Sequence record: PZ452612.1
DNA: 64,000 bases
DNA from: a phage
Direction: 5' to 3' (one strand)
Under the pieces are notes generated by a model. It was not told the origin of the DNA. It did not search any database and worked only from the letters and a program-made list of their open reading frames with translations. Below, one piece after another: positions 3,812 to 55,422 of this stretch; position 1 is the first letter of the stretch; each line of letters starts with the position of its first letter. The position numbers and the translations under genes are program-made.

Positions 3812-6523
3812 TCAAAAATCGAACATATCGAACAGAGATGCTTTCTTCTCGTAATCGAGTTTCGCTGCTGATGTGAATCCTTCAAGTGGTTTAATAAATG
3901 TCTTCTCAAGGAGAACAGTGTAGTCCATCCAATGAAGTACGTCATCTTTAATTAAATCTGTGATTTCAGTACCAGAAGGCCATGCGATACATTTATCACC
4001 GAACGGGTTTCCTTCACGTAAAGGCAGAACATATACTTTTTCACCTTCTACAACTTGTGGAGCATCAATATTACCTTTGATAGCTCTGTTATATGTCAGA
4101 ATTCCACGAATATGGAACGGACATTTAGGACCAGGGAATCCACCTACATCATATTTAGCAATGTTATTCGCAGAAGATACCGACGCGATGCTAATATAAT
4201 TCAATTGACGGAATTCTTTTTCAAACTCTTTAAAATATTCTTGTAATGATTCTTCACCTTCTTGAAGCATACGACGAATACATTCTTTAAGAGCTTTCTG
4301 TACTGCTTTAGGGGTCGAAGATTTCTGAGTCTCTAGACCCATGATTTTGAGTTTAGGCTCAGCGTAACGAGTACCTTCCATATCCCACACGTTTAATGCG
4401 TAACGTTTCTTACCAGTCCAGAATCCACCAATACCTTTAGAACCGAGCGGAGGACCAGCGATAGCTTCTCGGTCCATGAACATTAAGTGTTGTTTATTGT
4501 TCATGTATTCACACATTTCACGGAAACCTCTATCAATAGCAGGTTCCATACGTTCACGAGCGAACTTATCTAAGAAGTCTACCCAATGGTTGGTATCACG
4601 GAATTTAGATTCACCAACCTTATCGATAATTTTATCAGCAGATACGTAAATAGAGTCTGTATCACCATAAAGAACGAAAGCTTCACCTTCTGTACCACAA
4701 ACTTCGTTCAGATATTCATTAACTTTACGTTCAATCCACTGTAAAGCCATTTGACCAAATGTTGTGATTGCAGTAGCATTACGCAAATCGTAATAACGGA
4801 ACCAAACGTTGCCAAGTGCACCATAAAGTGAGTTGATAAGCAATTTACGGTTAATTTGTGCAGTCATACCTGCAACTTCAGTACGTTGAGCTCTAAACAA
4901 CATTTCATTAAGAGATTTAGCAGACAACTTTTTAATCTTTTCTTTAATCTCGTCAGTGAAGTCGAAACGATAATCAACATCTAATGGTTCGTCAACAGAA
5001 AGATTAGGATTATGCAACGCCTCTTTAATTATTTCACCATTACGTTGAGCCGCAAGCATATAACCTTTATGTTCTTTACGTTGATTAAAGACCTTAGTGA
5101 TTTCAGTTGGAACTACACCATCACGGTCTTTATAATACATCATGCCATTAGGAGAACAACTGTACACATCTGAAGGACGTTCAGCGATTGCGTTAATATA
5201 ATCATGCAGTGGAGCTACTTTAAACGTTCCTGCTATTGTTTCCGGGCTAATATTCACTTGGCGAATAATACTTGGATACAGAGATGTAAGGTCGAAACTC
5301 ATTACATATTTGTATCGATTTGGAATAGGTTCCTTAACAAAAGCGCCAGGATAAGGTTGAACCGGGTGAGAACGACCTTGTGGAATCACCTTGTTCTGCT
5401 CTTTAAGGCTATTAAAAATAATAGCATCCCATGTTTTAATTGGGCTAAACACAGATTGAATCTGTATCTTAGCATAATAACCCATGTCCAAACTCAAGTT
5501 GATGAACTGACGCTTAGCATCAATTTGCAATACACGATACACGTCGATAATGTTATAAGAAATATATCGTTGGTGATTGCTTTCACGAAGCTTAGAAATA
5601 GGGCCGTCATATTTCAGTTTACCAACGTTCAATTCAAATTCTGAAATGTAATCTAGAGAATACGACGGTTGATTGGTAAAAGAGAATTTTTTGTAAAGGT
5701 CGATATAATCAAGAACAGAGATACCGAACAATGTAATGATTTCACGAGAACCATACATGTTTTCGATAACTTTAACACGAGTTTTACGATGCGGTGATAA
5801 ACGTTTCGCAGTAGATTCGCCAAAAATATTCTTGATTCGGTTATACACATATGGAATATCAAATGACTCAACGTTCCATCCAGTCAAAATGACAGGAGTT
5901 TTCTGTTGCCAGAAGTTGAGATATTCCATCAACAATTCTTTTTCGTTATCGAACGGCATATAAATGATTTTATCGATAATTTCAGATGGAACTTCATCAC
6001 CGCCTTGTTCTTGAAGCTTAGCAGCGATTTCAATAGACCATTCTTCTACATTACCATATGGAGAATTCAATAGATCAAATACGTAGAACCTGTCGTCAAT
6101 TGAGTCATAATGGGTGATAGCATCAATCGGATGTTTTGCTTGTGATGGCTCAGGGAACCCATCCGGAGATGTTACTTCGATGTCGAAGTTAGCCACACGA
6201 ATTTTTGTATGGTCGTATTTGATTTCATAGTTATAAGTGTCAGACAAATACGCCAATTTGAAATCGTCCATGCCAAGTGCTTCAAGTCCGATATCTTCCA
6301 TGCGTTTAATCCATTGGGAGGCATCACGCATATTAGCGAACAACTTACGAGTACACGGCTTACCGTAGATATCGAAATATTTCGTAGCCTGACTTTCCGG
6401 ACAATGAGCAAACAGTGATGGTTTATATTCTACTTCACGAGTACGTTCACGGCCATTAGAATCGATGTAACGTTCAAAAATTGAATCACCAATCTGTTCA
6501 ACCGTTAAGTAAAATTCTTTCAT
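3812..6523 (-). CDS. 43: DNA polymerase gp43 (family B, with 3'-5' exonuclease)
   Basis: 903-aa ORF; motifs FDIEV (exo I), YGDTDS (pol motif C), KLLINSLYGALG; sequence matches my recollection of RB69 gp43. Confidence 0.97.
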   Translation of the reverse strand: MKEFYLTVEQIGDSIFERYIDSNGRERTREVEYKPSLFAHCPESQATKYFDIYGKPCTRKLFANMRDASQWIKRMEDIGLEALGMDDFKLAYLSDTYNYEIKYDHTKIRVANFDIEVTSPDGFPEPSQAKHPIDAITHYDSIDDRFYVFDLLNSPYGNVEEWSIEIAAKLQEQGGDEVPSEIIDKIIYMPFDNEKELLMEYLNFWQQKTPVILTGWNVESFDIPYVYNRIKNIFGESTAKRLSPHRKTRVKVIENMYGSREIITLFGISVLDYIDLYKKFSFTNQPSYSLDYISEFELNVGKLKYDGPISKLRESNHQRYISYNIIDVYRVLQIDAKRQFINLSLDMGYYAKIQIQSVFSPIKTWDAIIFNSLKEQNKVIPQGRSHPVQPYPGAFVKEPIPNRYKYVMSFDLTSLYPSIIRQVNISPETIAGTFKVAPLHDYINAIAERPSDVYSCSPNGMMYYKDRDGVVPTEITKVFNQRKEHKGYMLAAQRNGEIIKEALHNPNLSVDEPLDVDYRFDFTDEIKEKIKKLSAKSLNEMLFRAQRTEVAGMTAQINRKLLINSLYGALGNVWFRYYDLRNATAITTFGQMALQWIERKVNEYLNEVCGTEGEAFVLYGDTDSIYVSADKIIDKVGESKFRDTNHWVDFLDKFARERMEPAIDRGFREMCEYMNNKQHLMFMDREAIAGPPLGSKGIGGFWTGKKRYALNVWDMEGTRYAEPKLKIMGLETQKSSTPKAVQKALKECIRRMLQEGEESLQEYFKEFEKEFRQLNYISIASVSSANNIAKYDVGGFPGPKCPFHIRGILTYNRAIKGNIDAPQVVEGEKVYVLPLREGNPFGDKCIAWPSGTEITDLIKDDVLHWMDYTVLLEKTFIKPLEGFTSAAKLDYEKKASLFDMFDF

Positions 6524-6536
6524 TTAATTTCCTTTA

Positions 6537-6550
6537 GACGAGTTATTGTC
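6537..6550 (-). promoter_or_regulatory. Gene 43 translational operator-like hairpin (GAC-AAUAACUC-GUC) just upstream of SD AAGGAAA
   Basis: Minus-strand GACAATAACTCGTC, 3-bp stem with 8-nt loop AAUAACUC, about 10 nt upstream of SD. T4/RB69 gp43 autoregulates via a hairpin operator at this position. Confidence 0.4.
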
Positions 6551-6581
6551 TTTTGTTTGTTGATGAACTTATTATACTCCA

Positions 6582-6601
6582 AATGGGACCGAAGTCCCAT
6601 T
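6582..6601 (-). other. RNA stem-loop with UUCG tetraloop between regA and 43, followed by TATAAT
   Basis: 8-bp perfect inverted repeat AATGGGAC/GTCCCATT around cgaa (UUCG on minus strand), 3 nt after regA stop; no U-run follows. Confidence 0.45.
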
Positions 6602-6604
6602 GCT

Positions 6605-6973
6605 TTAATTACCAATTGTATATTTTGCTTTCAAAGTCCAGTCATCTTTCTGTTTAAAAGAGATAACACGGAAGTTATTAGTCAGGCCAAACAGATCTTC
6701 ACGAGCAGAGTCTTCAATAACAATCAATCCCCAGTCTTCAAGCAACTGAGCAATCGAATCACGTCGCTGATAGTCTTCACCATCAATATCAACCTGACGT
6801 CCGTCCATACGCAGCATTTCTTTAAAGTGGACGATGTAATATTTACCTTGCTTTTGGAGGATATGACAAGACTGGTAAAGGACTTTATCCTTGTTATTAG
6901 CGATGCCCATACGGGTTAGAGTCTCTTTGACTTTCAGAAAATCTTCAGGGTTCTTCAATTTAATTTCAATCAT
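6605..6973 (-). CDS. regA: RegA translational repressor
   Basis: 122 aa from internal ATG (MIEIKLKNPEDFLKVKETLTRMGIANNKDKVLYQSCHILQK...); position between 62 and 43; overlaps gp62 stop. Confidence 0.9.
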   Translation of the reverse strand: MIEIKLKNPEDFLKVKETLTRMGIANNKDKVLYQSCHILQKQGKYYIVHFKEMLRMDGRQVDIDGEDYQRRDSIAQLLEDWGLIVIEDSAREDLFGLTNNFRVISFKQKDDWTLKAKYTIGN

Positions 6974-6975
6974 TT

Positions 6976-7539
6976 TTACCATTCCAATGCTAATTTTTTA
7001 AATTGTTTTTGTTCTTTTACGTTTTTAGTAACTTCTTTGAGAAATTCATCAGTGACCATGGCCTTCAGTTCTTTAAGGACTATTGGCAGCTTGTTATTTT
7101 TTTCAAGGAGCCGCTTATACTCGGTAGCATCATTCATGTTGATTGTGTAATGTTTCATCAACAGTTTGATAACTAGTAACTCTGAAGTGTCTTCGACTAG
7201 TTTAGCCCATTTAGAGAATCGACGACCACGCGGAATTGCCGCCATCATATAGTTGAAGTGCGCTTCATCACTTAATTCAGAACCGACTAAGTTCATCATG
7301 TAAACGGCTGGCATACATTCTGGAAACTGGGATAACGAGTTCTCAACCATAAATTTTGAGTAGTCGACCTGAGCAATTGACATAGATTTCTTTTCATTAA
7401 TAGCATTAATGATTTTAAAGAATTCATTCTCAGGTTTTTCTTTAAACATATCAGCACATTTTTGAATCGCATCAGCGTCATTAGACTTCCATGCAATTTG
7501 GTGCTCGTTAAGCTGGACGTCATCATCGAATAAGTTCAT
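6976..7539 (-). CDS. 62: Clamp loader small subunit gp62
   Basis: 187 aa, T4 order 44-62-regA; start overlaps gp44 stop. Confidence 0.9.
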
Positions 7540-7540
7540 A

Positions 7541-8503
7541 TTATTTCCAAGTCAGTTCACAGGTCAGTTGAAGAAGCATATACATAACATGTAATTCAAT
7601 ATTACTTGCTAGTCCATGAAACTTATTATTTTCGCCTGCAATTTCGTAAAGCGAAATAATACTTTTACCAGGTGCAACTTGGTCATAACATTCTGAAACT
7701 AATTTATCTATGAACCATGAATAATCTGCAGCATATTTTGGAGCTAATGCACGAAGTTGTTTGATATCTTTGTTCTTCATTGCTTCGATAACATCAGAGA
7801 CTGTGCCACGGTCATTAGTTACGATAGACAGAATACCTGCATCAAGAACACCTTTAGACGAGTACTGGTCTAATTGGCCAATTGTACGACGAAAGTCTGG
7901 GAAGTTCTTTTTAACCAGAGCTGCAACAACTTTCATATCAGCGATTTCGATATTTTCGTTCTTACAGATTTCAACCATACGATGAATCATTTTCTTCATC
8001 ATCGAGATTTTATCTTCTTCAGTCGGACGACCGAATTCTATAACTCGACAACGGCTACGTAATGGTTCAATAATTCCATCAATGTTGTTGGCAGTAATAA
8101 TAATAGAACAGTTACTAGAGAATTCTTCCATAAACGTACGAAGGTGACGTTGTGATTCGGCGAGGCCACTACGGTCAAATTCATCAATAACAATAACTTT
8201 AGGCTTGCCTTCCATTGAGACTGAACGAGCGAATGCAGTTAACGGACCACGCACAAAATCAATCTTACAATCAGAACCGTTGACGAACATCATTTCGGCA
8301 TTGATATCATTACATAATGCTTTTGCTACGGTTGTTTTACCTGTACCAGGAGAAGGAGAGTGCAAAATAATATGAGGAAGTTTTCCTTTAGATACTAAAG
8401 ACTTGAATGTTTCATGGTCATACGCAGGCAGAATACATTCGTCAATGGAAGAAGGACGATATTTCTGTTCTAGAATGTGTTCTTTGGAATTGATAGTAAT
8501 CAT
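7541..8503 (-). CDS. 44: Clamp loader ATPase gp44 (AAA+)
   Basis: 320 aa; Walker [11 protein letters not shown], Walker [12 protein letters not shown] motif (LRSRC). Confidence 0.95.
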
Positions 8504-26247: not shown

Positions 26248-26775
26248 TTATGCGTGAACCGACTTTAAACGTTCTTCAAATTTCCGAAGAGTACTAATAC
26301 GTTCTGCTTTCTGTTTTGTATAGTTTGCAATACGTTCTGAAGTGAGAGCGTATCGTTCGTTTACTGTTTCTTTCATGAAGTCAGGGATTTCACGAGAAGC
26401 TTTAATTTCATCAAACTTATCGAGTACTGCCTGGTCTTCAGCAATTAAATTTTCGTACATCTCGATATCTTTCTTGATGAAGTCGATATCTTCCTGGGTT
26501 ACTTTGGATAAACGAGATGCTTTATCCTTTTTGTACTGCTCGTTAGTTTCACGAGACCAGAATAATGTACGTTTTTTGTTAGTGTTTTTGTAGACTTCCA
26601 CAATTCCAACTGAATCGATGATAACAATCCAATTCCAGCGAGATTTGAAAATCTGACCTCCGTCCACGGTAATCTCGTTACCATAAGCAATGTCATTAAA
26701 GAACTTACTTTGTGCTTCGGATTTAAATTTACCGTCGTTATAATTTACCAGGTTGAAAATATCTTTAGCGTTCAT
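26248..26775 (-). CDS. Hypothetical protein
   Basis: 175-aa ORF. Confidence 0.5.
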   Translation of the reverse strand: MNAKDIFNLVNYNDGKFKSEAQSKFFNDIAYGNEITVDGGQIFKSRWNWIVIIDSVGIVEVYKNTNKKRTLFWSRETNEQYKKDKASRLSKVTQEDIDFIKKDIEMYENLIAEDQAVLDKFDEIKASREIPDFMKETVNERYALTSERIANYTKQKAERISTLRKFEERLKSVHA

Positions 26776-26833
26776 GTTTTACCTCCAGTAGTTGATAGGT
26801 CTATAATAACATAACCATAGACCTTGTAAACAA

Positions 26834-27121
26834 CTAAAAGAAACTTTTTTCGGTATTTTTTCCACTGAACCAAACAGACTTCGGGATTTTTTGTAATTTT
26901 TCAGATTTAAGTTTCTCTTCCTGTTCTTTCTTATATACACCCTTGTCGTACTGGAGCATCTCTATGACATTCTTTTGCAAACGATCTAAGGTAATTAAGG
27001 CTTTAGTTTTTCCTTTCAAGGAAGAGTCCTGGCGAACCTCCTCGCTATATTGCATTGTAGAACTAACCATACGATGAGCATAGAGTTCGACTGCGGCTTT
27101 AATTTTTTGCATAAAATCCAT
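26834..27121 (-). CDS. Hypothetical protein
   Basis: 95-aa ORF. Confidence 0.45.
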   Translation of the reverse strand: MDFMQKIKAAVELYAHRMVSSTMQYSEEVRQDSSLKGKTKALITLDRLQKNVIEMLQYDKGVYKKEQEEKLKSEKLQKIPKSVWFSGKNTEKSFF

Positions 27122-27259
27122 AACATATCCTCTTTGATTTGTACATCATTATTTTTAAATATTTCTATGCCCTCAGTAGGTTCCTGGTGTCCTTCTTTGA
27201 GGTAAGCCATATGATTATTCATCTTTATGGCTTTTGTTACCTCAGAACTTCCTATAAGC

Positions 27260-28261
27260 TTATTTCAGTAAAGTAACTTCCGAGATTTCTTCCCAACCAT
27301 CTTTATCAGTTGAAATAAAATCTGCTACATAAAGAGCCGTACGTAATGATACATTGCGAAGACGAGATACGTTAGCCTTCATCCAGGACAATGCTTTATA
27401 CGTTTCTGCATCCGTCAGACCACGTTTCTGCATCATGTCAGTAGATAATATTACATCTTCAACTCGAACCATAATCTCTTCATTAGAGTGTACTCCAAGG
27501 TCGAGATACACTGAACGAGATACTAAAGCTTGAAGGTGTGGAGCAAGTTTCGAACCCCGTTCTAACTCTTTATCGATATCAACGTTTGTAATGAAAACGA
27601 TAGTACCTTCAAACTCAAATTCTTTATCAATACCCTTATCCTCGAGATAAGATGACGCAGTGCTCCAACAAACTTTGCGTTTATCTCCGGTATCTAATGC
27701 TGCTTTAAGAAGGTTCAGGATGTCCATATCTGAGAATACGTCAACGTCATCGATTAAGAGAACGCTGTCTTCATCACGGTTGAGCCAAAGTTGTTCGTAA
27801 AGGCCAATACCAGAGATTTTACCATTAATGCTTTTGTATTTGATGAAACCATTATCATTAGCATTATTAAGTGCTTTATCCAGAGAATACGTCTTACCAA
27901 TACCAGCTGCACCTGAAATAATGAGTGAACGAATTTTGCCATCGATAATGCCATTCGTCATCATGTTCATTACTTTAAAGCGTTTGTTGATACGGGTTTT
28001 CATATCTTCAGTGCTTTCAACAACTGCAACTGGTGATGTCTCAACTCCTTCCATTACGATGTCTGATTTGAAGACCCATACTCCACGTTCAGAACCATCA
28101 ATCATAACGAAAATTTTACCATCACCTAAGTGGGAACATTCAGGATTAAGCTTTGCCGGGAACCAGGTCTTTGTGGCAACATAAGAACCAGAGATTTCGT
28201 TATTACGATAGATACCTTTTTTGATTTGAACGTTGAACATTTTATTCTCCAATTTACTCAT
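27260..28261 (-). CDS. P-loop NTPase (Walker A/B) of unknown function
   Basis: 333 aa; Walker A GAAGIGKTYS, Walker B VLLIDDVD. Confidence 0.6.
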   Translation of the reverse strand: MSKLENKMFNVQIKKGIYRNNEISGSYVATKTWFPAKLNPECSHLGDGKIFVMIDGSERGVWVFKSDIVMEGVETSPVAVVESTEDMKTRINKRFKVMNMMTNGIIDGKIRSLIISGAAGIGKTYSLDKALNNANDNGFIKYKSINGKISGIGLYEQLWLNRDEDSVLLIDDVDVFSDMDILNLLKAALDTGDKRKVCWSTASSYLEDKGIDKEFEFEGTIVFITNVDIDKELERGSKLAPHLQALVSRSVYLDLGVHSNEEIMVRVEDVILSTDMMQKRGLTDAETYKALSWMKANVSRLRNVSLRTALYVADFISTDKDGWEEISEVTLLK

Positions 28262-28337
28262 TTCGTTTCGATAGGTCTATAGTATCATATCCTAAAAGCA
28301 TGTACACTACTTTTTAAAAATATTTTAACCCCCTAAA

Positions 28338-28353
28338 GGGACCCGAAGGTCCC
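28338..28353 (-). terminator. UUCG-tetraloop hairpin downstream of the secreted-protein gene (minus strand)
   Basis: GGGACC-cgaa-GGTCCC perfect 6-bp stem; U-containing tail on minus strand. Confidence 0.45.
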
Positions 28354-28358
28354 CACAT

Positions 28359-28625
28359 TTACTTATCACACTTAGCAACATAATTAGGCATATCACAGAA
28401 TACAGAGCGAGTAACTACTCGACCCTTTGACCATGCTTCAGTTGCTTGTCCGGCCGTGCTATTAATATAGCTTGATTTAATGTTCTCAATACCCTGAGAA
28501 TGTGATGCATTTACCGAACCGTTAGAAGGCCCAGAAGACTGGTTACCACCAGCTCCTGCGCCCGTGGTAGCACCAACAGAGAATGCCATCATTACTGCGA
28601 ATAAACCAATTACTAATTTTTTCAT
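28359..28625 (-). CDS. Small secreted protein (signal peptide, Gly/Ser/Asn-rich, C-terminal Cys pair)
   Basis: 88 aa; MKKLVIGLFAVMMAFSVGA signal-like N-terminus; late promoter TATAAATA immediately upstream. Confidence 0.55.
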   Translation of the reverse strand: MKKLVIGLFAVMMAFSVGATTGAGAGGNQSSGPSNGSVNASHSQGIENIKSSYINSTAGQATEAWSKGRVVTRSVFCDMPNYVAKCDK

Positions 28626-28656
28626 ATTTACCTCAAGTTAATGGTTATTTATCTAT

Positions 28657-29646
28657 TTATTTATAGTAAGAATTATGATTTTCGAGATAGACTTGCTCAA
28701 GGAAGTCATCCCAGAAACTCATATCTACTTTTTGTTGCATACCGTTCTTAGCGGCTTGTTCTGACGCATGTTCAACTTGGTCAACGATATCTTCTAGGAA
28801 TTCTTGCACAGTTTTAAACGTATGTTTACCAAGCTTAACATCGAGAATAAATGGAGCATCCTGAAGTGGGTAAACCAGGTCGCCGGTTTTGTAAATTTCC
28901 AATAATTGAAGTCCACCACGACATGCATGACTCAATGCTTTCCAGTCAATACCTTCGTTAGCTTCTGCCTTACGAGCACGTTCGCCATAGTTCTCTTCCA
29001 GTTTAACCAGGATGGCATTGAACTCTTTATTGGTTAACGTATCTTGGAATTTACGGTCTAACAGATTATAGAATGTTTGCTTACCTGTTTTCTCGTTTTC
29101 GGTTTCAACCCATGAAGCAAATTCACCTACAGGCAGAACATTCTTCATATGTGATAAACGAATTACTGCACCATTATCAAAGTATTGTCCCCATTCATTA
29201 GAACGTTTAAGGGCTTGACGAAGAACAGCCAGTCGAGAACCCTTGACACCGTATTTAGAAGCTTGCTTACGGACATACCCTAAATAAGATTTCATGTTAG
29301 TGGTATAGAAACGAGACCTGTTATCTTGAATATACTTCCATACATCAGGCAAATCAGATTTAACTACTAGACTTTGTGGAGTGTGAAGCATATCTAATGC
29401 GACGGTTTCACCATCTGCAGCTAGTTTAAAGAAATATTTGAGACTATATAACTCATGGTCCACGTCGTCTTTTGTGTTCTTAGAAGATGTGTTATTAGTG
29501 TTCTTGCTCATGTGTTCTTTAACGTTACCGGTCAAGATATCACGAGCATGAGGGACATAAATTTCTTTAAAATCGACGTCAGATTCAGGAGTAGACGTTC
29601 CATAAAGGTGGCTACCAAAGTAGCCTTTCATAATTGTTTTCATCAT
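28657..29646 (-). CDS. Pol-beta-superfamily nucleotidyltransferase-fold protein
   Basis: 329 aa; N-terminal GSHLYGTSTPESDVDF fits the G[SG]x9-13Dx[DE] nucleotidyltransferase signature. Confidence 0.5.
   Translation of the reverse strand: MMKTIMKGYFGSHLYGTSTPESDVDFKEIYVPHARDILTGNVKEHMSKNTNNTSSKNTKDDVDHELYSLKYFFKLAADGETVALDMLHTPQSLVVKSDLPDVWKYIQDNRSRFYTTNMKSYLGYVRKQASKYGVKGSRLAVLRQALKRSNEWGQYFDNGAVIRLSHMKNVLPVGEFASWVETENEKTGKQTFYNLLDRKFQDTLTNKEFNAILVKLEENYGERARKAEANEGIDWKALSHACRGGLQLLEIYKTGDLVYPLQDAPFILDVKLGKHTFKTVQEFLEDIVDQVEHASEQAAKNGMQQKVDMSFWDDFLEQVYLENHNSYYK
28658..28665 (-). promoter_or_regulatory. T4-type late promoter TATAAATA (minus strand)
   Basis: Plus tatttata = minus TATAAATA, ~33 nt upstream of the ATG at 28625. 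Confidence 0.45.
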
Positions 29647-30116
29647 TTAGCCTTATATTCAAGAGTAGGACAGACTTTTTCTTTACGAGCTTTAAGGTAT
29701 TCGCCTATTAATGATTTCTTACGTTCAATAGGCTCAAGTCCATTTTTAATTCGTTCTTGGTTTTGCGCAATGAGCTCAATTTCTTTATAATATTTTCTGT
29801 CGTTATATTTGTCTAACAACCAAGACGGACCAATTACCAACCCGGTAGCAATAAAAGCCATGACTGCTACAATTAAAATGCCTACACCAATTGAGGCTGG
29901 AACTAATGTCCATAGACTGCTAAAAACAAAGAATTTAGTTAAAATTTCCTGGCCAATGATTGTGACTGCTGCTAAAATCGCAAATCCAATAATTGAAACA
30001 GCCAATACCGGGATTAACGTTTTCCAAAAATAAGCACACAACGTTTTCGGACGATTCCATGTACTATTGAACGCGGCATAAATTTTAAAGTGCCAAGAGT
30101 TTTCATTGATAATCAT
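29643..30116 (-). CDS. Integral membrane protein
   Basis: 157 aa with two long hydrophobic segments. Confidence 0.5.
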   Translation of the reverse strand: MIINENSWHFKIYAAFNSTWNRPKTLCAYFWKTLIPVLAVSIIGFAILAAVTIIGQEILTKFFVFSSLWTLVPASIGVGILIVAVMAFIATGLVIGPSWLLDKYNDRKYYKEIELIAQNQERIKNGLEPIERKKSLIGEYLKARKEKVCPTLEYKAK

Positions 30117-30125
30117 AATAATTCC

Positions 30126-30656
30126 TTATTTCAAAGTTGGGATAATAGAATCGAGATAAGCTTTAAGAGCAACTGCTTCATCTTTGTCTAATGTAACGAT
30201 ATGTTGACGAAGGTCATCAATTTGACGAATAACTACAACATCGCCATCTTCATAAGAAGGATTAACGCCTAGGACCGTTGTATAGTCAGGGCGGTCCTGA
30301 TTTGTAATAAAAGCATTACGGCATTTAGCCCATTGAAGTTTGGCCTTTTTGGCTATTTCAGATTCCATTAATTCTTTCACCTTAGTGACGAATGTTTTCC
30401 AATTATTGATAGAAAGGCATTCATCTTCTGTTTCGATATTAACCCCACTATAAAGACCGTGATAAAAACGAACTTGAAGGTCTTCATCGATGTTAATTAC
30501 AGATGCATGGCCTGGCGGATTGAGTTTCAAAATCTTGTCCAGTTCCATAGGAAGAATAGTAACAGAATCATCTTCTTGTGTCAGAACGTAAGCATAACCA
30601 CGTTTTTCGATACATAAATCACCAAACAACTCGGTTGTTTCAATTACAATTTTCAT
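30126..30656 (-). CDS. Hypothetical protein
   Basis: Track ORF begins with TTG; trimmed to ATG (MKIVIETTELFG...). Confidence 0.5.
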   Translation of the reverse strand: MKIVIETTELFGDLCIEKRGYAYVLTQEDDSVTILPMELDKILKLNPPGHASVINIDEDLQVRFYHGLYSGVNIETEDECLSINNWKTFVTKVKELMESEIAKKAKLQWAKCRNAFITNQDRPDYTTVLGVNPSYEDGDVVVIRQIDDLRQHIVTLDKDEAVALKAYLDSIIPTLK

Positions 30657-31496: not shown

Positions 31497-31799
31497 TTAG
31501 ATAGATGTAGGCTCTAATTTTATTTTCATGAACTCGGCAAATTGTCTGGCAGTTTTTATGCCTTGTTCATGACATTCAAATGCATCATCACAGGGACTAT
31601 TTTTGTAATGCTTTGCCATATACTTATAGAATTTTTCAGAATTCTCGACATTTTGAATTTCAAACAAAGTATATACGTTTTTAATCCCTGATTCCATAAA
31701 GTTATCAAAATATGGGTCGATATATGCAGTACCAACGATAGGAGTTGTTGCTGCAAAAAACCCCAGCATCGCCATGACAGCTATCGCTCTTAAGGCCAT
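31497..31799 (-). CDS. rI: Antiholin RI (lysis inhibition)
   Basis: 100 aa; signal-anchor N-terminus and motifs DPYFDNFMESGIKNVYTLFE, SPCDDAFEC match T4 RI as recalled. Confidence 0.8.
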   Translation of the reverse strand: MALRAIAVMAMLGFFAATTPIVGTAYIDPYFDNFMESGIKNVYTLFEIQNVENSEKFYKYMAKHYKNSPCDDAFECHEQGIKTARQFAEFMKIKLEPTSI

Positions 31800-44768: not shown

Positions 44769-45218
44769 TTACCCCTTGTATCCGAGTTTTCTAAGACCAT
44801 CTTCGGTTAGAACTCGAAATTTTATATTTCTCTTTTCAGCAACAGCTGAGGCAGCTTTCCATTTGTCACAGTTCACAGACCAGGTATATATTTCATTCAT
44901 ATAACGTTTCTTTGCTGCGGTAGTAAGATTTGCGGGCTTAATAGGTGGTTGAGTTTCTTTCTTTGGTTTTATTTCTACAAAGAACTCTTGACCTGATGCA
45001 TCTTTCATCCATATGTCCATATAGTATCGACGTTTCTTACCTTCAGCATTACAAAAATATGGAATTACTGCTGTTTCACTACCCCATGCAATAATTTCTG
45101 GATTTTTATCCAACCATTCGAAAAAGAATTTTTCCCAGTTTGAACGATACGTTATTTTGGTATGGTCTCCACGGTATTTTTTTAAATTTTTTGGGACCCA
45201 TTTACCAGAGTAGGCCAT
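44769..45218 (-). CDS. 4: Head completion protein gp4
   Basis: 149 aa from internal ATG ([18 protein letters not shown]...); minus-strand late promoter upstream. Confidence 0.85.
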
Positions 45219-45229
45219 GTTGTCCTCCT

Positions 45230-45237
45230 TATAAATA
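45230..45237 (+). promoter_or_regulatory. Late promoter TATAAATA for gene 53 (plus strand)
   Basis: Exact TATAAATA ~43 nt upstream of the gp53 start. Confidence 0.55.
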
Positions 45238-45244
45238 GTATTAT

Positions 45245-45252
45245 TATTTATA
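45245..45252 (-). promoter_or_regulatory. Late promoter TATAAATA for gene 4 (minus strand)
   Basis: Plus tatttata; divergent from the gene 53 promoter 8 bp away. Confidence 0.55.
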
Positions 45253-45279
45253 CCAATTTCATATTGGAAGGAGACTATC

Positions 45280-45855
45280 TTGTTATTTACATTCTTCGAC
45301 CCAATAGGATATAGTGCTAAAACAGTTGATAAGAATGCACCTACTATTCCTATGACAGACATATTTCGTAACTATAAAGAGTACTTTAAGCGTGTGGCTG
45401 CCAATTATAGATTACGTTCTTATTATATTAAAGGCTCTCCGCGTCCTGAAGAACTAGCGAATATCATTTATGGCAACCCTCAATTATACTGGGTCCTTTT
45501 GATGTGCAACGATAACTACGACCCGTATTATGGTTGGATTACATCTCAGGAAGCAGCGTATCAAGCTTCTATTCAGAAATATGCTAATGCTGGCGGCGAC
45601 CAAGTTCTTTATCATATTAATGAAAATCGTGAGAAATTTTACAATTTGGTTTCATATCCGGACGAGCCTTTAGTGTGGTATGATAAAGGTGATGAAGCTC
45701 GTAAGTATCCGCAATATAAAGGACCTTTAGCTGCAGTAGATACTTATGAAGCTGCAGTATTAGATAATGAAAAACTTCGTAAAATAAAAATTGTTGCAAA
45801 AGAAGATATAAACTCGTTTATCACAGATTTGATTCGTGAGATGGAGATTGCATAA
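45280..45855 (+). CDS. 53: Baseplate wedge protein gp53
   Basis: 191-aa ORF; apparent TTG start with SD GGAAGGAG 7 nt upstream (first in-frame ATG is at codon 25). Confidence 0.8.
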   Translation: MLFTFFDPIGYSAKTVDKNAPTIPMTDIFRNYKEYFKRVAANYRLRSYYIKGSPRPEELANIIYGNPQLYWVLLMCNDNYDPYYGWITSQEAAYQASIQKYANAGGDQVLYHINENREKFYNLVSYPDEPLVWYDKGDEARKYPQYKGPLAAVDTYEAAVLDNEKLRKIKIVAKEDINSFITDLIREMEIA

Positions 45856-48411: not shown

Positions 48412-50385
48412 ATGGCAAACACTCCTGTAAATTATCAATTAACCCGAACAGCGAATGCTATTCCCGAGATTTTTATCGGGGGCACATTTGCCGAAATCAA
48501 ACAGAACATTATCGAATGGCTCCATGGACAGAATGAATTTCTTGACTATGATTTTGAAGGTTCACGCTTAAACGTATTGTGCGACCTTTTAGCATATAAC
48601 ACTCTTTACATCCAACAGTTCAGTAATAGTGCAGTGTATGAAAGTTTTATGCGCACTGCAAACTTGCGTAGCTCTGTTGTACAAGCGGCTCAAGATAACG
48701 GATATCTGCCTTCATCTAAATCAGCAGCACAAACAGAAATTATGCTCACATGTACGGATGCGTTAAATAGAAACTATATCACCATTCCACGTGGCACTCG
48801 TTTCTTAGCATATGCTAAAGATACTTCTGTTAACCCATATAACTTTGTTTCTACTGAAGATGTCATTGTAGTTAAAGACAAAAATAACCAATATTTCCCA
48901 CGTCTTAGATTAGCTCAGGGACGTATTGTTCGTACTGAATTAACATTTGATAAATTAAAACCTATCATTATTCGTGATAAGAACATTGACCGTAATTTAG
49001 TTAAGTTGTACGTTGATGGAGCAGAATGGATTAACTGGACTCGTAAGTCGATGGTTCACGCTGGTTCTACGTCAACAATCTATTATATGCGTGAAACAGT
49101 TGATGGGAACACCGAATTTTATTTTGGTGAAGGCGAAATCTCTATTAACACATCAGAAGGTGCGTTAACATCCAACTATATTGGTGGCCTTAAACCTGTT
49201 CAGGGTTCTAAAATCGTAATTGAGTATATTTCTACTAATGGCGCAGATGCTAACGGTGCTGTAGGATTTTCTTATGCTGATACATTAGCTAATATCACGG
49301 TAATCGATATTAATGAGAACCCTAGCAATAACCCAGACTTTGTCGGGGCCGATGGCGGCGGCGACCCTGAAGATATTGAACGTATTCGAGAATTAGGCAC
49401 AATTAAACGCGAAACTCAACAACGTTGTGTAACCGCTTCCGACTATGACACATTCGTCTCTGAGCGGTTTGGTTCTATTATTCAAGCAGTTCAAACATTC
49501 ACAGATTCGTCTAAACCTGGGTATGCATACATTGCTGCTAAGCCTAAATCTGGATTGTATTTGACTTCTGTCCAACGTGATGATATCAAAAACTATTTGA
49601 ATGATTATAACTTAGGGACTATTACACCTGTTGTTATTTCGCCTGATTATTTGTTTATCAAAATGAATATCAAAGTTACGTACGCGTTGAATAAACTCCA
49701 AGAATCAGAACAATATCTTGAAGGGCAAATTATTAATAAAATTGACCGATATTATATTGAAGATGTAGAAATTTTTAACTCATCGTTTGCAAAATCTAAA
49801 ATGCTAACTTATGTCGATGATGCAGATATTTCTATTATTGGTTCTTCAGCTACTATTCAAATGGTTCGCGAAGTACAGAACTTTTATAAAACGCCTGAGG
49901 CCGGTATTAAATACAATAATCAGATTAAAGATAGATCGATGGAATCTAATATATTCTCGTTTGATTCGCACAGACCTAATCCAGAAAATGCAAACGAAAC
50001 TATTAAATACGGTGTTCGCATAGTATCTTCTGACCGTAATGACCGTGGCATAGGTCAAGTTATTATTGGTCCATTTGCAGATGGCGATGTTGTTGAAAAC
50101 GAAAATATACAACCTTATACAGGTAATGATTTTAATAAACTTACTGTTACTGACGGACGAAACAAATACTATTCAATTGGTGAGGTGAATTATCCTGCCG
50201 ATTCGATTTATTGGAACATTGCTAAAATTGACCTCACTTCAGACCGTTTTGAAGTTCAGACAATTGAACTTTATTCCGACCCTGCAGATGATATTATTTT
50301 TACAAAGGATGGTTCTTTAATCGTATTCGAAAATGACTTACGTCCTCAGTACTTAACTATAGATTTGGAGCCTATTTCACAATGA
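48412..50385 (+). CDS. 6: Baseplate wedge protein gp6
   Basis: 657 aa from ATG at 48412 (MANTPVNYQL...). Confidence 0.9.
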   Translation: MANTPVNYQLTRTANAIPEIFIGGTFAEIKQNIIEWLHGQNEFLDYDFEGSRLNVLCDLLAYNTLYIQQFSNSAVYESFMRTANLRSSVVQAAQDNGYLPSSKSAAQTEIMLTCTDALNRNYITIPRGTRFLAYAKDTSVNPYNFVSTEDVIVVKDKNNQYFPRLRLAQGRIVRTELTFDKLKPIIIRDKNIDRNLVKLYVDGAEWINWTRKSMVHAGSTSTIYYMRETVDGNTEFYFGEGEISINTSEGALTSNYIGGLKPVQGSKIVIEYISTNGADANGAVGFSYADTLANITVIDINENPSNNPDFVGADGGGDPEDIERIRELGTIKRETQQRCVTASDYDTFVSERFGSIIQAVQTFTDSSKPGYAYIAAKPKSGLYLTSVQRDDIKNYLNDYNLGTITPVVISPDYLFIKMNIKVTYALNKLQESEQYLEGQIINKIDRYYIEDVEIFNSSFAKSKMLTYVDDADISIIGSSATIQMVREVQNFYKTPEAGIKYNNQIKDRSMESNIFSFDSHRPNPENANETIKYGVRIVSSDRNDRGIGQVIIGPFADGDVVENENIQPYTGNDFNKLTVTDGRNKYYSIGEVNYPADSIYWNIAKIDLTSDRFEVQTIELYSDPADDIIFTKDGSLIVFENDLRPQYLTIDLEPISQ

Positions 50386-53300
50386 CAGTAAAAGCGCCAG
50401 CAGTCACAAGTCTCAGAATATCCAAGTTGTCCGCTAACCAAGTTCAAATACGCTGGGATGACGTTGGTGCTAATTTCTACTATTTCGTAGAAATCGCTGA
50501 GACTAAAACGGCAGACGGGGAAATAATTCCCCCTGCCAGCTACAGATGGATAAATTTAGGATATACCCCTAATAACAACTGGTTCGAAAGTAGCTTAGAC
50601 CCATTAACTTCTTATATTATTCGTGTATCAACTGCCGCTGAAGGCTTCGAGAGATCTGATTGGGTATATACCGAAATATTTGAATCATTTCAGACTAACG
50701 CGTATACATTTCAACATATGATTGAAATGCAATTGGCTAACACTTTTATTAGAGAAAAATTTACAAATAACAACATGGCTTATGTCGATTTTAATAACGA
50801 CACTATAATGGCAGCTCTAATGAATGAATCGTTCCAATTTAGCCCTGCTTATGCAGATATTTCATCTATTAAAAATTTCATTATTGGCGAAAATGAGTAT
50901 CATGAAATTCAAGGTTCGATTCAACAGGTGTGTCATGATATAAACCGTGTTTATTTGATGGAATCCGAAGGAATTCTTTATTTGTTTGAACGGTATCAGC
51001 CTGTGGTTAAAGTCTCTAATGATAAGGGACAAACCTGGAAATCGGTTAAATTGTTTAATGACCGTGTAGGGTACCCTGTATCAAGAACAGTGTATTACCA
51101 GACAGATTACACCACGTATGTTCTTGGGTATGATAAATTATTTTACGGCCGTAAATCAACTGACGTTCGTTGGTCTGCTGATGATGTGAGATTTAGTTCT
51201 CAAGATATAACATTTGCTAAAATTGGTGACCAGTTAAATTTAGGATTTGATGTAGAAATATTTGGTAACTACGCATCATTACCTGCTAACGTGTCACGTA
51301 TTGCAGAAGCTATCGTTTGCAATGACGATTATGTGTACGTCGCTGCTCGAGATAAAGTTCGTTTTATTAAAACTAGTAATGCCCCTATCGATTCAGACCC
51401 GTTATCTCCGACGTATTCCGAACGTTTGTTTGAACAAGAAACATTTAACATCACAGGTAACCCTAAGGCAGTTTGTTATAAAATGGATTCTGTCGGCGGT
51501 AAAATATTTGCACTGATTATCGGTGAAGTTGTTAATCTTAATGACGACCCGAGGACCACTCCTATTGTTGATTCTGCTGATAAGGGTATTTACGTTCTAG
51601 ACCATGATGCTGGCACATTTAAACGTGTGTTTGGTAATACTGAAGAAGAACGCCGTCGTATTGAACCTGGGTACACCAGTATGTCTACTGATGGTGTTGA
51701 GTTATCTATTTCATCTAGTAATTTTAAATTTCTAGAATCGGATATTGTTGATGACCCAAAAACGCAAATCAAGTACGGTTTAATCGGTGCTGTTAAATAT
51801 GAGTATCCTCGCGAATGGTTGGCTGATAAACATTATCATATGATGGCATTTATTTCAACTGAAGACTCTCAATGGGAATCGTTCACTCCTCAACCGATGG
51901 AATACTATGCTGAGCCATTCTTTAGTTATTCTAGAAAGTCTGGTACTCGTTGTTGGATTAATAACTCAGACAAGGCCGTTGTAATTTATTCTGATTTACT
52001 TTACACTAAGGTTATTGAGAATCATCCACTTAGTTCTTCAGACCGTGAAGTTCATGAATATTGGAAGGACGGTGACTGTACAATAGTGATGCCTAACGTG
52101 GATTTCACCGGATTTAAAAAATATGCATCCGGCATGATTTTCTATAAATCATCAGGTGAGATTATTTCTTATTATGATTTTAGTTATCGTGTTAGAGATA
52201 ATGTTTCTATAATTTGGAAGCCTACTAATATATTCTTAACAGCATCATTACAAAACCAAGAAAAAGATACCACATGGACTCCTGTAGAAGAGAATGGTAT
52301 TGCAGACCCAGATTTACGTCCATTGCTCACTACAATGATGCCGGAGTCTTATCTTTTAGATAATACAAACTTTGAAGCGTTCTGCGAGGCTTATATTCAG
52401 TATCTTTCTGACGGTTATGGGACCCATTATAACAACCTTTTGAATCTTATTAAAAATCAATATCCGCGCGAAGAACATGCGTGGGAATACTTATGGTCTG
52501 AGATTTATAAACGAAACATTTACTTAAACGCCGAAAAACGCGATTTAGTGTCTCGTTTCTTTGAATCAAGAAGTTATGACTTCTATTCAACTAAAGGAAC
52601 TGAAGCATCATATAAATTCTTGTTTAAAGTGCTTTATAACGAAGATGTTGAAATTGAAATTGAATCTAGTTCCGGGACCGAATATGATATCATCATTGAA
52701 TCTGATTCGTTGACAGAAGATTTGGTCGGACAAACCATATACACCGCTACAGGACGTTGTAATGTGACGTATATCGAGAGAAGTTACTCTAAAGGTAAAT
52801 TACAATGGACTGTAACAATTCACAACCTCTTAGGTCGTTTAATCCAAGGACAGGAAGTTAAAGCTGAAAGACTCCCTGGTTTTGAAGGTGAAATTGTTCG
52901 TGGTATTAAAGGTAAAGAGCTTTCTCAGAACAACATCGATTACATAAATCGTGGTAGAGCATACTACGTAATGAAGATTAAATCTAAACTTCCGTCATCT
53001 CGTTGGAAATCAGACGTATTACGTTTTGTTCATCCGGTTGGATTTGGATTTATCGCAATTACCCTTCTCACAATGTTTATTAACACCGGATTAACACTTA
53101 AACATGTTGAAACCATTATTAATAAATACAAAAACTATAAGTGGGATTCTGGATTACCGACTAAATATGCAGACCGAGTGGCTAAATTAGACCCACAAGG
53201 AAATGTTGAGTTTGACCCTATTACAGGTAAAGCGATATATGAAATAGGCCCTATGGCTGGTCAAGATTATCCATTGCCTGAAGATTATAACGCTGAAAAC

Positions 53301-54509: not shown

Positions 54510-54517
54510 TATAAATA
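54510..54517 (+). promoter_or_regulatory. Late promoter TATAAATA for gene 9
   Basis: Exact TATAAATA ~33 nt upstream of the gp9 ATG. Confidence 0.55.
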
Positions 54518-54549
54518 GAATATAATATCGGACAACAAAAGGCAGAATT

Positions 54550-55422
54550 ATGGCATTTTTTAAGCAAACTCCTAAACAATTAATCGATACCGGCGAAATT
54601 GGTAATGCCTCAACAGGTGATATCTTATTCGACGGTGGTAATAAAATAAATGACGATATCAACGCTATTTACAATGCATTTGGCGATCAACGTAAAATGG
54701 CCGTAGCAGATGGAACCGGACCTACAGGTCAAACTATTCATGCCACAGGTTATTATCAAAAAGGAAAGGCAGCCGATTATCAAACTCCTATTAAACCCGG
54801 CACCATGCATGATATTGATGCTTCTGATGGCGGTGTGATTGTTATTATTGACCGTCCTGAATTAGGTGACTCTGTAGAATTCATAAACTCTAATGGGTCT
54901 ATTTCTGTTAACAATCCTTTAAGTATCCAAGTAACTGATGGTTCGATTAAAGGTGTTCTTAATAATCTTGTTATTTCCACCCCTTATACCCATGTTGTTC
55001 TTCGTTGTGTTGAACTTAATGGGCCAACTTCAGTATGGAATTATTCTACTGATAGCATGTTTGGGCAGAAAGAATCTCCTGTCGATGGGACTTGGAGTCT
55101 TACAGGAAACACAGTTTCTATTCCTCTGTTTTATCGCACGGATTATAACATGGCCAAATTGCTTGTTACATGCCAATCCGCCGACGGTAGAAAAATAAAA
55201 ACATGCGAAATAAATATTCTAATAGATACAATTAACTCAGAAGTTCTTTCTACCGAATTTGCAGTAATGCGAGTTGGTAATGTAGATGAAACCGACGAGA
55301 TTGCTAATATTAGCTTTAGTATTATTAACAACTTTGCTACTATGACGATTACATCCGATATTATTGGATTACGTTCGGCAGTTAAAATTATCTCAACTCA
55401 GAAAATTGGGGTCGCTCAATAA
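54550..55422 (+). CDS. 9: Baseplate wedge / long-tail-fiber socket protein gp9
   Basis: 290 aa; synteny. Confidence 0.9.
   Translation: MAFFKQTPKQLIDTGEIGNASTGDILFDGGNKINDDINAIYNAFGDQRKMAVADGTGPTGQTIHATGYYQKGKAADYQTPIKPGTMHDIDASDGGVIVIIDRPELGDSVEFINSNGSISVNNPLSIQVTDGSIKGVLNNLVISTPYTHVVLRCVELNGPTSVWNYSTDSMFGQKESPVDGTWSLTGNTVSIPLFYRTDYNMAKLLVTCQSADGRKIKTCEINILIDTINSEVLSTEFAVMRVGNVDETDEIANISFSIINNFATMTITSDIIGLRSAVKIISTQKIGVAQ

Follow-up and report, generated by a model that had tools for sequence, protein, structure and literature searches.

A long-form RlaP-family nucleotidyltransferase, an AAA+ ATPase, and a predicted exported protein encoded by separate genes in the nrdC-tk region of a Mosigvirus phage

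The polynucleotide kinase and RNA ligase of phage T4 were the first RNA-repair system to be discovered, and together they undo the cut that PrrC makes in tRNA-Lys. RloC-type nucleases also remove the wobble nucleotide, a step that was proposed to make repair by kinase and ligase futile. Here, three neighboring genes, one of which may bear on this pathway, were analyzed at positions 27260 to 29646 of a 64,000-nucleotide (nt) stretch of phage DNA (PZ452612.1; the whole stretch is referred to as the window). An original prediction, made from the sequence alone, had placed three open reading frames (ORFs) of 329, 88, and 333 amino acids (aa) here, all of which were recovered, on the minus strand, in this analysis (Table 1), and had read them as a Pol-beta-fold nucleotidyltransferase, a secreted protein preceded by a late-promoter motif, and a P-loop NTPase. 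With fair confidence, we regard them as three independent genes, encoding a probable RlaP-type RNA-repair nucleotidyltransferase (NTase) orthologous to T4 NrdC.11, a lineage-specific, predicted periplasmic protein with a plausible late promoter (ORF88), and an AAA+ ATPase orthologous to T4 NrdC.10.

All three genes are ordinary members of the T4 gene family and have already been catalogued. The original prediction had called the 333-aa and 88-aa proteins unexplained, which was not supported; T4 nrdC.11 was matched to a nucleotidyltransferase COG and nrdC.10 to an AAA motif in 2006 (Nolan et al., PMC1524935). Phage RlaP proteins were reported to mirror the distribution of RNA ligases, and were predicted to restore nucleotides removed by RloC-like nucleases ahead of ligation (Iyer et al. 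2021, PMC7824862). In a bioRxiv preprint of December 2025, two Pseudomonas RlaPs were found to add one or two nucleoside monophosphates (NMPs), or the corresponding deoxynucleoside monophosphates (dNMPs), to an RNA 3′-OH (Carruthers, Fatma, and Huang, PMC12776372). These enzymes preferred Mn2+ and mimics of damaged tRNA, did not act on DNA or protein, and improved the aminoacylation of tRNA repaired after the loss of one nucleotide, and their 3′-OH product suits 5′-phosphate ligases (PMC12776372). T4 NrdC.11 was explicitly named as a member of the RlaP family in the same preprint (sequence similarity network cluster 5), and both the family assignment of the NTase and its predicted role are already published.

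Positions 27000 to 30200 were 100% identical to Escherichia coli O157 typing phages 3, 6, and 13 (Mosigvirus, RB69 group) and 98-99% identical to many other Mosigvirus genomes. By RefSeq annotation this is the nrdC-tk region, with every gene here on the minus strand; the region is plastic in T-even phages, and the hyperplastic character proposed for it was in this way borne out. Gene order follows that of T4 nrdC.8 to nrdC.11, with nrdC.9 and then nrdC.8 next downstream of the 333-aa ORF. The 329-aa and 333-aa ORFs were each 78% identical to T4 NrdC.11 and NrdC.10, respectively, and the slot of the 88-aa ORF is taken in T4 by a 114-bp spacer alone, with no counterpart of the ORF. NCBIfam and PADLOC searches returned no meaningful match for any of the three proteins, single-sequence and profile searches against the PDB returned no significant match for either large protein, and an Rfam search of positions 26500 to 30500 returned no match at E ≤ 1.

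Table 1. Coordinates of the genes, catalytic residues, and candidate signals in the window
Feature	Coordinates	Strand	Remark
NrdC.11 ortholog, long-form RlaP-family Pol-beta NTase, 329 aa	28657..29646	-	alternative start 29643, giving 328 aa
NTase catalytic core	29452..29616	-	codons checked; alignment of 113 homologs and model
NTase G11-S12	29611-29616	-	codons checked
NTase D23	29578-29580	-	codon checked
NTase D25	29572-29574	-	codon checked
NTase D63	29458-29460	-	codon checked
NTase E65	29452-29454	-	codon checked
T4-type late-promoter-like motif TATAAATA, exact, overlapping the NTase stop codon	28658..28665	-	
ORF88, small exported protein (predicted)	28359..28625	-	ORF and phrog_2243 match
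ORF88 signal peptide, residues 1-19	28569-28625	-	read from sequence
UUCG-tetraloop hairpin GGGGACC-UUCG-GGUCCCU ending the nrdC.11/ORF88 unit	28337..28354	-	predicted -12.9 kcal/mol
T4-early-type promoter-like site GTGTAC, 17 nt, TACTAT, before the NrdC.10 ortholog	28279..28307	-	read from sequence
NrdC.10 ortholog, AAA+ ATPase, 333-aa ORF	27260..28261	-	likely start 28240, giving 326 aa
NrdC.10 Walker A, G117-x4-G122-K123-T124	27890-27913	-	
NrdC.10 Walker B, D171-D172	27746-27751	-	

Residues 7-152 of the NTase matched the Pfam family RlaP (PF10127) at 49.5 bits (gathering score 23, E-value 5.9e-13), the same family is precomputed for most of its homologs, and the full protein was assigned to phrog_388 ("nucleotidyltransferase") in PHROGs. 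An alignment of 113 diverse homologs (25-33% identity) was used for conservation analysis and for an AlphaFold2 model, which was confident (predicted local distance difference test (pLDDT) 88.5, predicted template modeling score 0.79). In the model, a strand is followed by the G11-S12 helix, the D23-x-D25 strand, an insertion at residues 33-60, and the E65 strand, so that the catalytic positions map to helix 12-15, strand 24-31, and strand 62-68. The C-terminal half is mostly helical, with a three-stranded beta insert at residues 177-201 and a long terminal helix at 309-328. G11, S12, D23, and E65 were invariant across the alignment and D25 was at least 90% conserved. The third catalytic carboxylate, judged from the model together with conservation among the 113 homologs, is likely E65 (or D63). 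D85 was also considered for this position and was rejected, as its predicted place is in a helix and its conservation extends to close relatives only. The Pol-beta signature of hG[GS], DxD, and a third carboxylate on the adjoining strand is complete in the NTase, and the residues of the acidic triad, on whose presence in a predicted structure the original prediction had staked its reading, are there and conserved. On its sequence, the protein is a long-form RlaP-family Pol-beta nucleotidyltransferase and the ortholog of NrdC.11.

The NTase was found by tblastn in 1574 phage records, from Straboviridae and some jumbo phages. In addition, 185,579 species genomes were scanned using a 10-sequence alignment as the query. 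Full-length relatives with 26-52% identity were encoded at 80 bacterial or metagenome-assembled genome (MAG) loci, several of which sit on complete or megabase-scale bacterial chromosomes, and neighboring ORFs within 6 kb were clustered at 69 of these 80 loci. RNA-repair genes were the sole recurrent neighbors and lay within this distance at 14 or more of the 69 loci (at least 14/69). A canonical short RlaP (254-278 aa, full-length PF10127 match) was encoded directly downstream on the same strand at 8-10 loci, RtcB was a neighbor at 5, Ro60 (TROVE and vWA) at 4, and Pnkp at 4. Hen1 was also found near an NTase relative at five loci and RtcA at two; three of these Hen1/RtcA loci (L054, L061, L062) come on top of the 14 counted. 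A genomic association with RNA ligases or RNA-repair genes is in this manner present among the bacterial relatives of the NTase.

Some of these genes form clean operons. On the Asticcacaulis solisilvae chromosome, Hen1, Pnkp, long RlaP, and short RlaP follow one another with genes overlapping by 4 nt, and a Nitrosospira contig carries Ro60-x-RtcB-RtcA-long RlaP-short RlaP-Hen1. Adjoining long and short RlaP genes had overlapping ends in the loci inspected. At three Desulfovibrio/Adiutrix MAG loci (L080, L084, L087; about positions 5910-7780), the two forms were fused into a single protein of about 604-624 aa, with an NrdC.11-type long NTase at the N-terminus and a canonical RlaP at the C-terminus (PF10127 at 250 bits). 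Two loci also carry a gene for a MoxR-like AAA_5 ATPase at the end of a Ro60-RtcB-RtcA-RlaP-RlaP-Hen1 string (L036, 9201-12060; L060, 8730-9782), and in L036 a gene for a DUF2201/VWA-like protein comes after it.

Among phages, the NrdC.11 homolog of Vibrio phage RYC (L010, 2520-5912 and 10081-10322) is encoded three genes downstream of the gene for a CCA-adding tRNA nucleotidyltransferase, and a cluster of tRNA-Pro/Asn/Glu genes is found about 4 kb from it. The Mosigvirus genome that includes the present locus encodes Rnl1, PseT, and Rnl2 outside the window, at places that do not adjoin the NTase.

By analogy with the biochemistry of the family and with the bacterial gene neighborhoods, the most likely role of the NTase is to restore nucleotides trimmed from broken tRNA before the phage kinase and ligase reseal it. 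In such a scheme, a host anticodon nuclease would cut the tRNA and the 5′ half would be trimmed, after which the phage polynucleotide kinase/phosphatase PseT would make 3′-OH and 5′-phosphate ends. The NrdC.11 ortholog would add one or two NMPs, template-free, to the 3′-OH of the broken RNA (mainly tRNA halves), with D23, D25, and E65 (or D63) coordinating two metal ions. Rnl1 would then reseal full-length tRNA, giving a fraction of functional tRNA, and the NTase would act as an accessory of the classical T4 RNA-repair counter-defense. The original prediction had offered several roles, namely the making or destroying of nucleotide signals and the modification of proteins or RNA, of which the modification of RNA is the sole fit.

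Several points weigh against this role. The PF10127 match is confined to the N-terminal NTase core (positions 23-148 of the 249 in the profile), and hhalign of the long form against canonical short RlaPs (probability 92.5%, E-value 4.9e-7) likewise spanned 88 columns of the NTase core only. The C-terminal domain, which is probably substrate-binding, could not be aligned to the short RlaPs by hhalign or to the Pfam model, and the substrate or product of the NTase could for that reason differ from theirs. The characterized RlaPs are short-form Pseudomonas enzymes described in an unreviewed preprint (PMC12776372). About 80% of the bacterial loci have no RNA-repair neighbor. The bacterial long form is usually accompanied by a short RlaP; no short form was found in T4-like phages, which have the long form alone, and because of this the role of the long form may differ from the characterized RlaP activity. 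Lastly, T4 mutants with a deletion from nrdC.11 to mobD.3 are viable (PMC9825161), so nrdC.11 is dispensable on laboratory hosts.

The pairing and fusion with short RlaP in RNA-repair operons would imply a division of labor, and we tentatively extend this to a broader proposal. Under it, NrdC.11-type enzymes would form a functionally distinct long-form RlaP class that works alongside short RlaP, in bacteria as an obligate pair or fusion in Hen1-Pnkp and Ro60-RtcB-RtcA operons, and T4-like phages would have kept the long form alone as a stand-alone device against RloC-type, nucleotide-excising anticodon nucleases, whose damage had been regarded as beyond repair. As an example of such a division, one of the two enzymes might recognize the trimmed anticodon loop, select the nucleotide, or make the ligase-compatible end.

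If NrdC.11 does restore the missing nucleotide, T-even phages would already hold an answer to RloC-type escalation, and nrdC.11 would join a textbook counter-defense pathway as its third, conserved component, with about 1,570 sequenced phages carrying it. This would not be a new kind of system; its value would be that an orphan gene known for a long time gains a clear and testable function. What is added here is direct genomic evidence of a tie between RNA-repair operons of bacteria and the NrdC.11 clade, the description of the NrdC.11 type as a distinct long form that is paired or fused with canonical RlaP, and corrections of the NTase third catalytic residue and of the NrdC.10 start codon.

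Downstream of the NTase, ORF88 matched phrog_2243 (E-value 1.6e-38). Its N-terminus, as read from the sequence, consists of MKK, the 13-residue hydrophobic stretch LVIGLFAVMMAFS, and a predicted cleavage site between VGA and T. The charged n-region, h-region, small residues at -3 and -1, and lack of a lipobox Cys are those of a Sec-exported non-lipoprotein, the lipoprotein option being set aside since the cleavage site lacks a Cys; the secretion first proposed for this protein is in keeping with this predicted Sec-type signal peptide. The signal-peptide pattern is kept in the homolog from Gaprivervirus VR25. A Gly/Ser-rich linker leads into a conserved C-terminal part with C77 and C86; in-frame indels make the linker longer or shorter from phage to phage. 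By tblastn, ORF88 was present in only 103 phage records, from Mosigvirus and Gaprivervirus (61% identity), with no homologs found outside these two genera, and the small ORFs in the same slot of WG01 and Roth76 are unrelated to it. Taken together, these features suggest a lineage-specific periplasmic protein that is possibly disulfide-bonded.

The exact late-promoter-type motif TATAAATA to which the original prediction had drawn attention is built from the last codons of the NTase gene, TAC TAT AAA TAA, and it ends 32 nt ahead of the ORF88 ATG. The use of TAA instead of TGA as the Mosigvirus NTase stop codon creates the motif; T4 and WG01, which have no ORF88, read TATAAATG with a TGA stop, and the motif is absent in VR25 as well. 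It is a plausible late promoter. Because ORF88 lies upstream of the hairpin that ends the nrdC.11 unit, it can be read through from nrdC.11, and it would probably be transcribed both by this read-through and, in Mosigvirus, from the late promoter.

A real though minority chance must be given to the explanation that TATAAATA is no promoter here and is a by-product of Tyr-Tyr-Lys codons followed by TAA, with ORF88 expressed only by read-through from nrdC.11. The motif is indeed formed by those four codons, and T4 and WG01 share the Tyr-Tyr-Lys end, with only the TGA stop turning it into TATAAATG. Across the window the count of TATAAATA was at chance level (7 observed, 8.3 expected), and VR25 presumably expresses its ORF88 homolog without the motif. 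Set against this is the position of the sites: for three of the seven, an annotated start on the same strand (gene 49, rI.1, or ORF88) follows 24-32 nt downstream (binomial p ~1.4e-4), and in the ORF88-bearing Mosigvirus examined the exact 8-mer has the same geometry relative to the ATG as at gene 49 and rI.1. It was also kept in the three Mosigvirus sequences examined (including AV117 and pEB20) despite substitutions nearby. We continue to read TATAAATA before ORF88 as a plausible late promoter.

Two further occurrences of the motif were observed in the window. One, followed by AAGGAGG and an ATG, lies inside a 197-aa ORF at 44769-45362 (45208-45252, minus strand), and the real, late-expressed protein of this ORF may begin at Met49 and not at the first codon of the longest ORF. 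The other, with an ATG 32 nt downstream, lies out of frame inside a gp5-like baseplate hub gene (54510-54552, plus strand) and may reflect chance or a small embedded ORF. In VR25 (L015, 216-2400), NrdC.11 is accompanied by an extra 74-aa ORF and by the ORF88 homolog, which is preceded by a sigma-70-like site in place of TATAAATA, and there is no NrdC.10 between nrdC.11 and nrdC.9.

Between ORF88 and the NrdC.10 ortholog, two candidate signals were identified. The UUCG-tetraloop hairpin is followed by only three U residues here, and the same hairpin, with compensatory stem changes, comes after nrdC.11 or ORF88 in T4, WG01, and VR25; it would serve as a terminator or as an RNA-stabilizing stem-loop. 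The promoter-like site beyond it has equivalent blocks in the same place in T4 and WG01 (GTTTACA/TACTAT and GTGTACA/TATTAT), from which we infer an early promoter. A generic sigma-70 scan of the region did not list this site, and the counts from the generic sigma-70 and terminator scans were not meaningfully above those of shuffled controls. The NrdC.10 ortholog would be expressed early, from this early-type promoter of its own. In WG01 (L003, 6040-6400), the early-promoter block GTGTACATCTGCTTTAAACATGTTATTATAGACCTATCA is duplicated and flanks an unrelated 76-aa ORF between nrdC.11 and nrdC.10, which looks like the insertion of a promoter-flanked cassette in a plastic region.

The ORF of the NrdC.10 ortholog almost certainly starts at its second ATG, because a GGAG Shine-Dalgarno sequence precedes this codon, every homolog starts at the position of M8, and the RefSeq annotation has this start. 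Its model was very confident (pLDDT 94.6): a beta domain at the N-terminus (residues 9-70) is followed by a long helix (84-106), then by the AAA+ core (112-254), and finally by a helical lid (260-331). Invariant in 90 homologs were G117, G122, K123, and T124 of Walker A, D171-D172 of Walker B, the sensor-1 residue N226, R249 in an "SRS" motif, and R307 in the lid. No Pfam family passed its threshold; the alpha-beta-alpha core, helical lid, Walker A and B, sensor-1, arginine finger, and sensor-2 expected of an AAA+ protein were all present. We are confident, given the predicted fold, that the protein is an AAA+ ATPase, and the P-loop NTPase originally proposed could in this way be specified further. 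It would probably be an oligomeric enzyme for ATP-driven remodeling or translocation, and the sensor-1 strand is preceded by an insertion of about 30 residues, in keeping with the higher rank of MCM, MoxR, and NtrC-type proteins.

Homologs of NrdC.10 occurred in 1312 phage records, including jumbo phages, in which the N-terminal beta domain was absent or replaced; this domain is variable across the family. Vibrio and Xanthomonas phages carry the gene in the company of replication and nucleotide-metabolism genes and away from any NrdC.11. No conserved partner of NrdC.10 was found, and on metagenomic phage contigs its neighbors were small, variable ORFs of no known function.

For the NTase, the foremost alternative is a KNTase/MNT-type activity directed at a protein or a small molecule instead of RNA; nucleotidylylation of this kind could, for instance, be AMPylation of a toxin or factor of the host. 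Foldseek against the PDB lends it something, as only Pol-beta NTases with helical C-domains were returned (3c18, ANT(4′)/KNTase, Hailong HalB, LinB, AAD(9), and MNT), and KNTase-type enzymes came next after HalB, the nearest solved fold among the matches listed. The KNTase affinity named in the original prediction is upheld by these folds and fails at the level of sequence families, where the combination of an NTase with a KNTase_C helical domain that marks KNTase/ANT proteins gave no match. We consider this alternative unlikely and retain the RlaP-family assignment.

It is very improbable that the NTase, the AAA+ ATPase, and the secreted protein make up one module, such as an AAA+-assisted RNA-repair machine that echoes the bacterial operons with a MoxR gene. 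The two large genes are set apart by a hairpin resembling a terminator and by a distinct promoter of early type. The phyletic patterns of the genes also differ, as the record counts given above for each of them indicate, and each of the large genes occurs without the other in the loci examined: NrdC.10 was not found within 5 kb on either side of NrdC.11 in Pm5461, avDM3, and Miro or within 1.5 kb in VR25, where ORF88 is present. ORF88 itself is confined to its 103 records. A kinship between NrdC.10 and the MoxR AAA+ protein of the two bacterial RNA-repair operons was considered and rejected, since the two have no sequence similarity. Because their distributions across phages differ, the three genes are, as far as sequence comparison can tell, not a functional unit.

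The view of the NTase as an enzyme that synthesizes or degrades a nucleotide second messenger, be it CD-NTase-like, Gad2-like, anti-CBASS, or anti-Thoeris, draws on the GS...DxD motif and generic Pol-beta fold that it has in common with CD-NTases and on other anti-signaling genes elsewhere in the phage, and is highly improbable: there was no SMODS/CD-NTase profile match and no cGAS/DncV-type fold, and neither CD-NTase/cGAS folds nor CCA-adding enzymes were among the matches listed by Foldseek. The CD-NTase, Gad2-like, and CCA-adding tRNA-nucleotidyltransferase affinities that had been suggested found no family or fold match, and the PF01743 head, neck, and body domains of CCA-adding enzymes were lacking.

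Equally remote is a phage HalB-like oligonucleotide synthase, whose short oligo-dA would keep the Hailong-type channel HalA closed and thereby serve as an anti-defense decoy. HalB (PDB 9dbh), an anti-phage, oligodeoxyadenylate-synthesizing protein of 217 aa, differs from the NTase in sequence (16% identity, no detectable homology, and no relation in PDB profile searches) and in its partner, the HalA ion-channel effector encoded by the adjoining gene. No HalA-like partner was found here or beside the bacterial relatives, whose loci include RNA-repair operons, and short-form RlaP did not extend DNA (PMC12776372). The RlaP-family reading of the NTase is the one carried forward.

Two matters of annotation arose from these comparisons. 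In many GenBank phage records, the NrdC.10 and NrdC.11 orthologs carry the label "thioredoxin", and mobillu apparently has a third gene of this stretch so labeled. This label was rejected for both orthologs, as neither protein has any thioredoxin similarity, and it appears to be an annotation error that spread from the gene names nrdC.10 and nrdC.11. With this mislabel corrected, NrdC.10 should be named an AAA+ ATPase. Elsewhere in the window, a 151-aa gene annotated "RNA ligase" adjoins the tail-fiber chaperone gene (about 49950-50410; NC_041863.1 74305-74760), in the position of T4 57B. Since we take T4 57B to be the 2H-phosphoesterase Acb1, an anti-CBASS protein, the label "RNA ligase" is probably misleading.

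Compared with known systems, ORF88 most resembles T4's small periplasmic proteins that carry a signal peptide, for instance the RI antiholin encoded about 3 kb away (31497-31799), as all are short, have an N-terminal hydrophobic segment of the cleavable or anchor type, belong to the same region, and have a TATAAATA-type site nearby. It differs from RI, and from any named protein, in having no sequence similarity to them, in its Gly/Ser linker and two C-terminal cysteines, and in its restriction to Mosigvirus and Gaprivervirus. When the NrdC.10 ortholog was compared with T4 NrdC.10 (NP_049708) and with the MCM, MoxR, NtrC, Hda, DnaA, Cdc6, and RFC groups, no clade assignment was secure, and the N-terminal beta domain set NrdC.10 apart from all of these AAA+ groups.

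The NTase is closest to T4 NrdC.11 (NP_049709), with which the identity extends over the full length. Both genes lie between y05I-like/membrane-protein genes and nrdC.10, and both are followed by the UUCG hairpin and the early promoter. T4 differs in having mobD inserted upstream, in its TGA stop (and so no TATAAATA), and in having no ORF88 before the hairpin. Relative to the characterized RlaPs of P. fluorescens and P. aeruginosa, the NTase belongs to a longer form (about 310-335 aa versus about 255-280 aa), with the insertion at residues 33-60 in its core and the beta insert at 177-201. It has in common with them a homologous NTase core followed by a largely helical C-terminal region (by predicted secondary structure), and its relatives, like RlaP, occur in RtcB and Pnkp/Hen1 operons.

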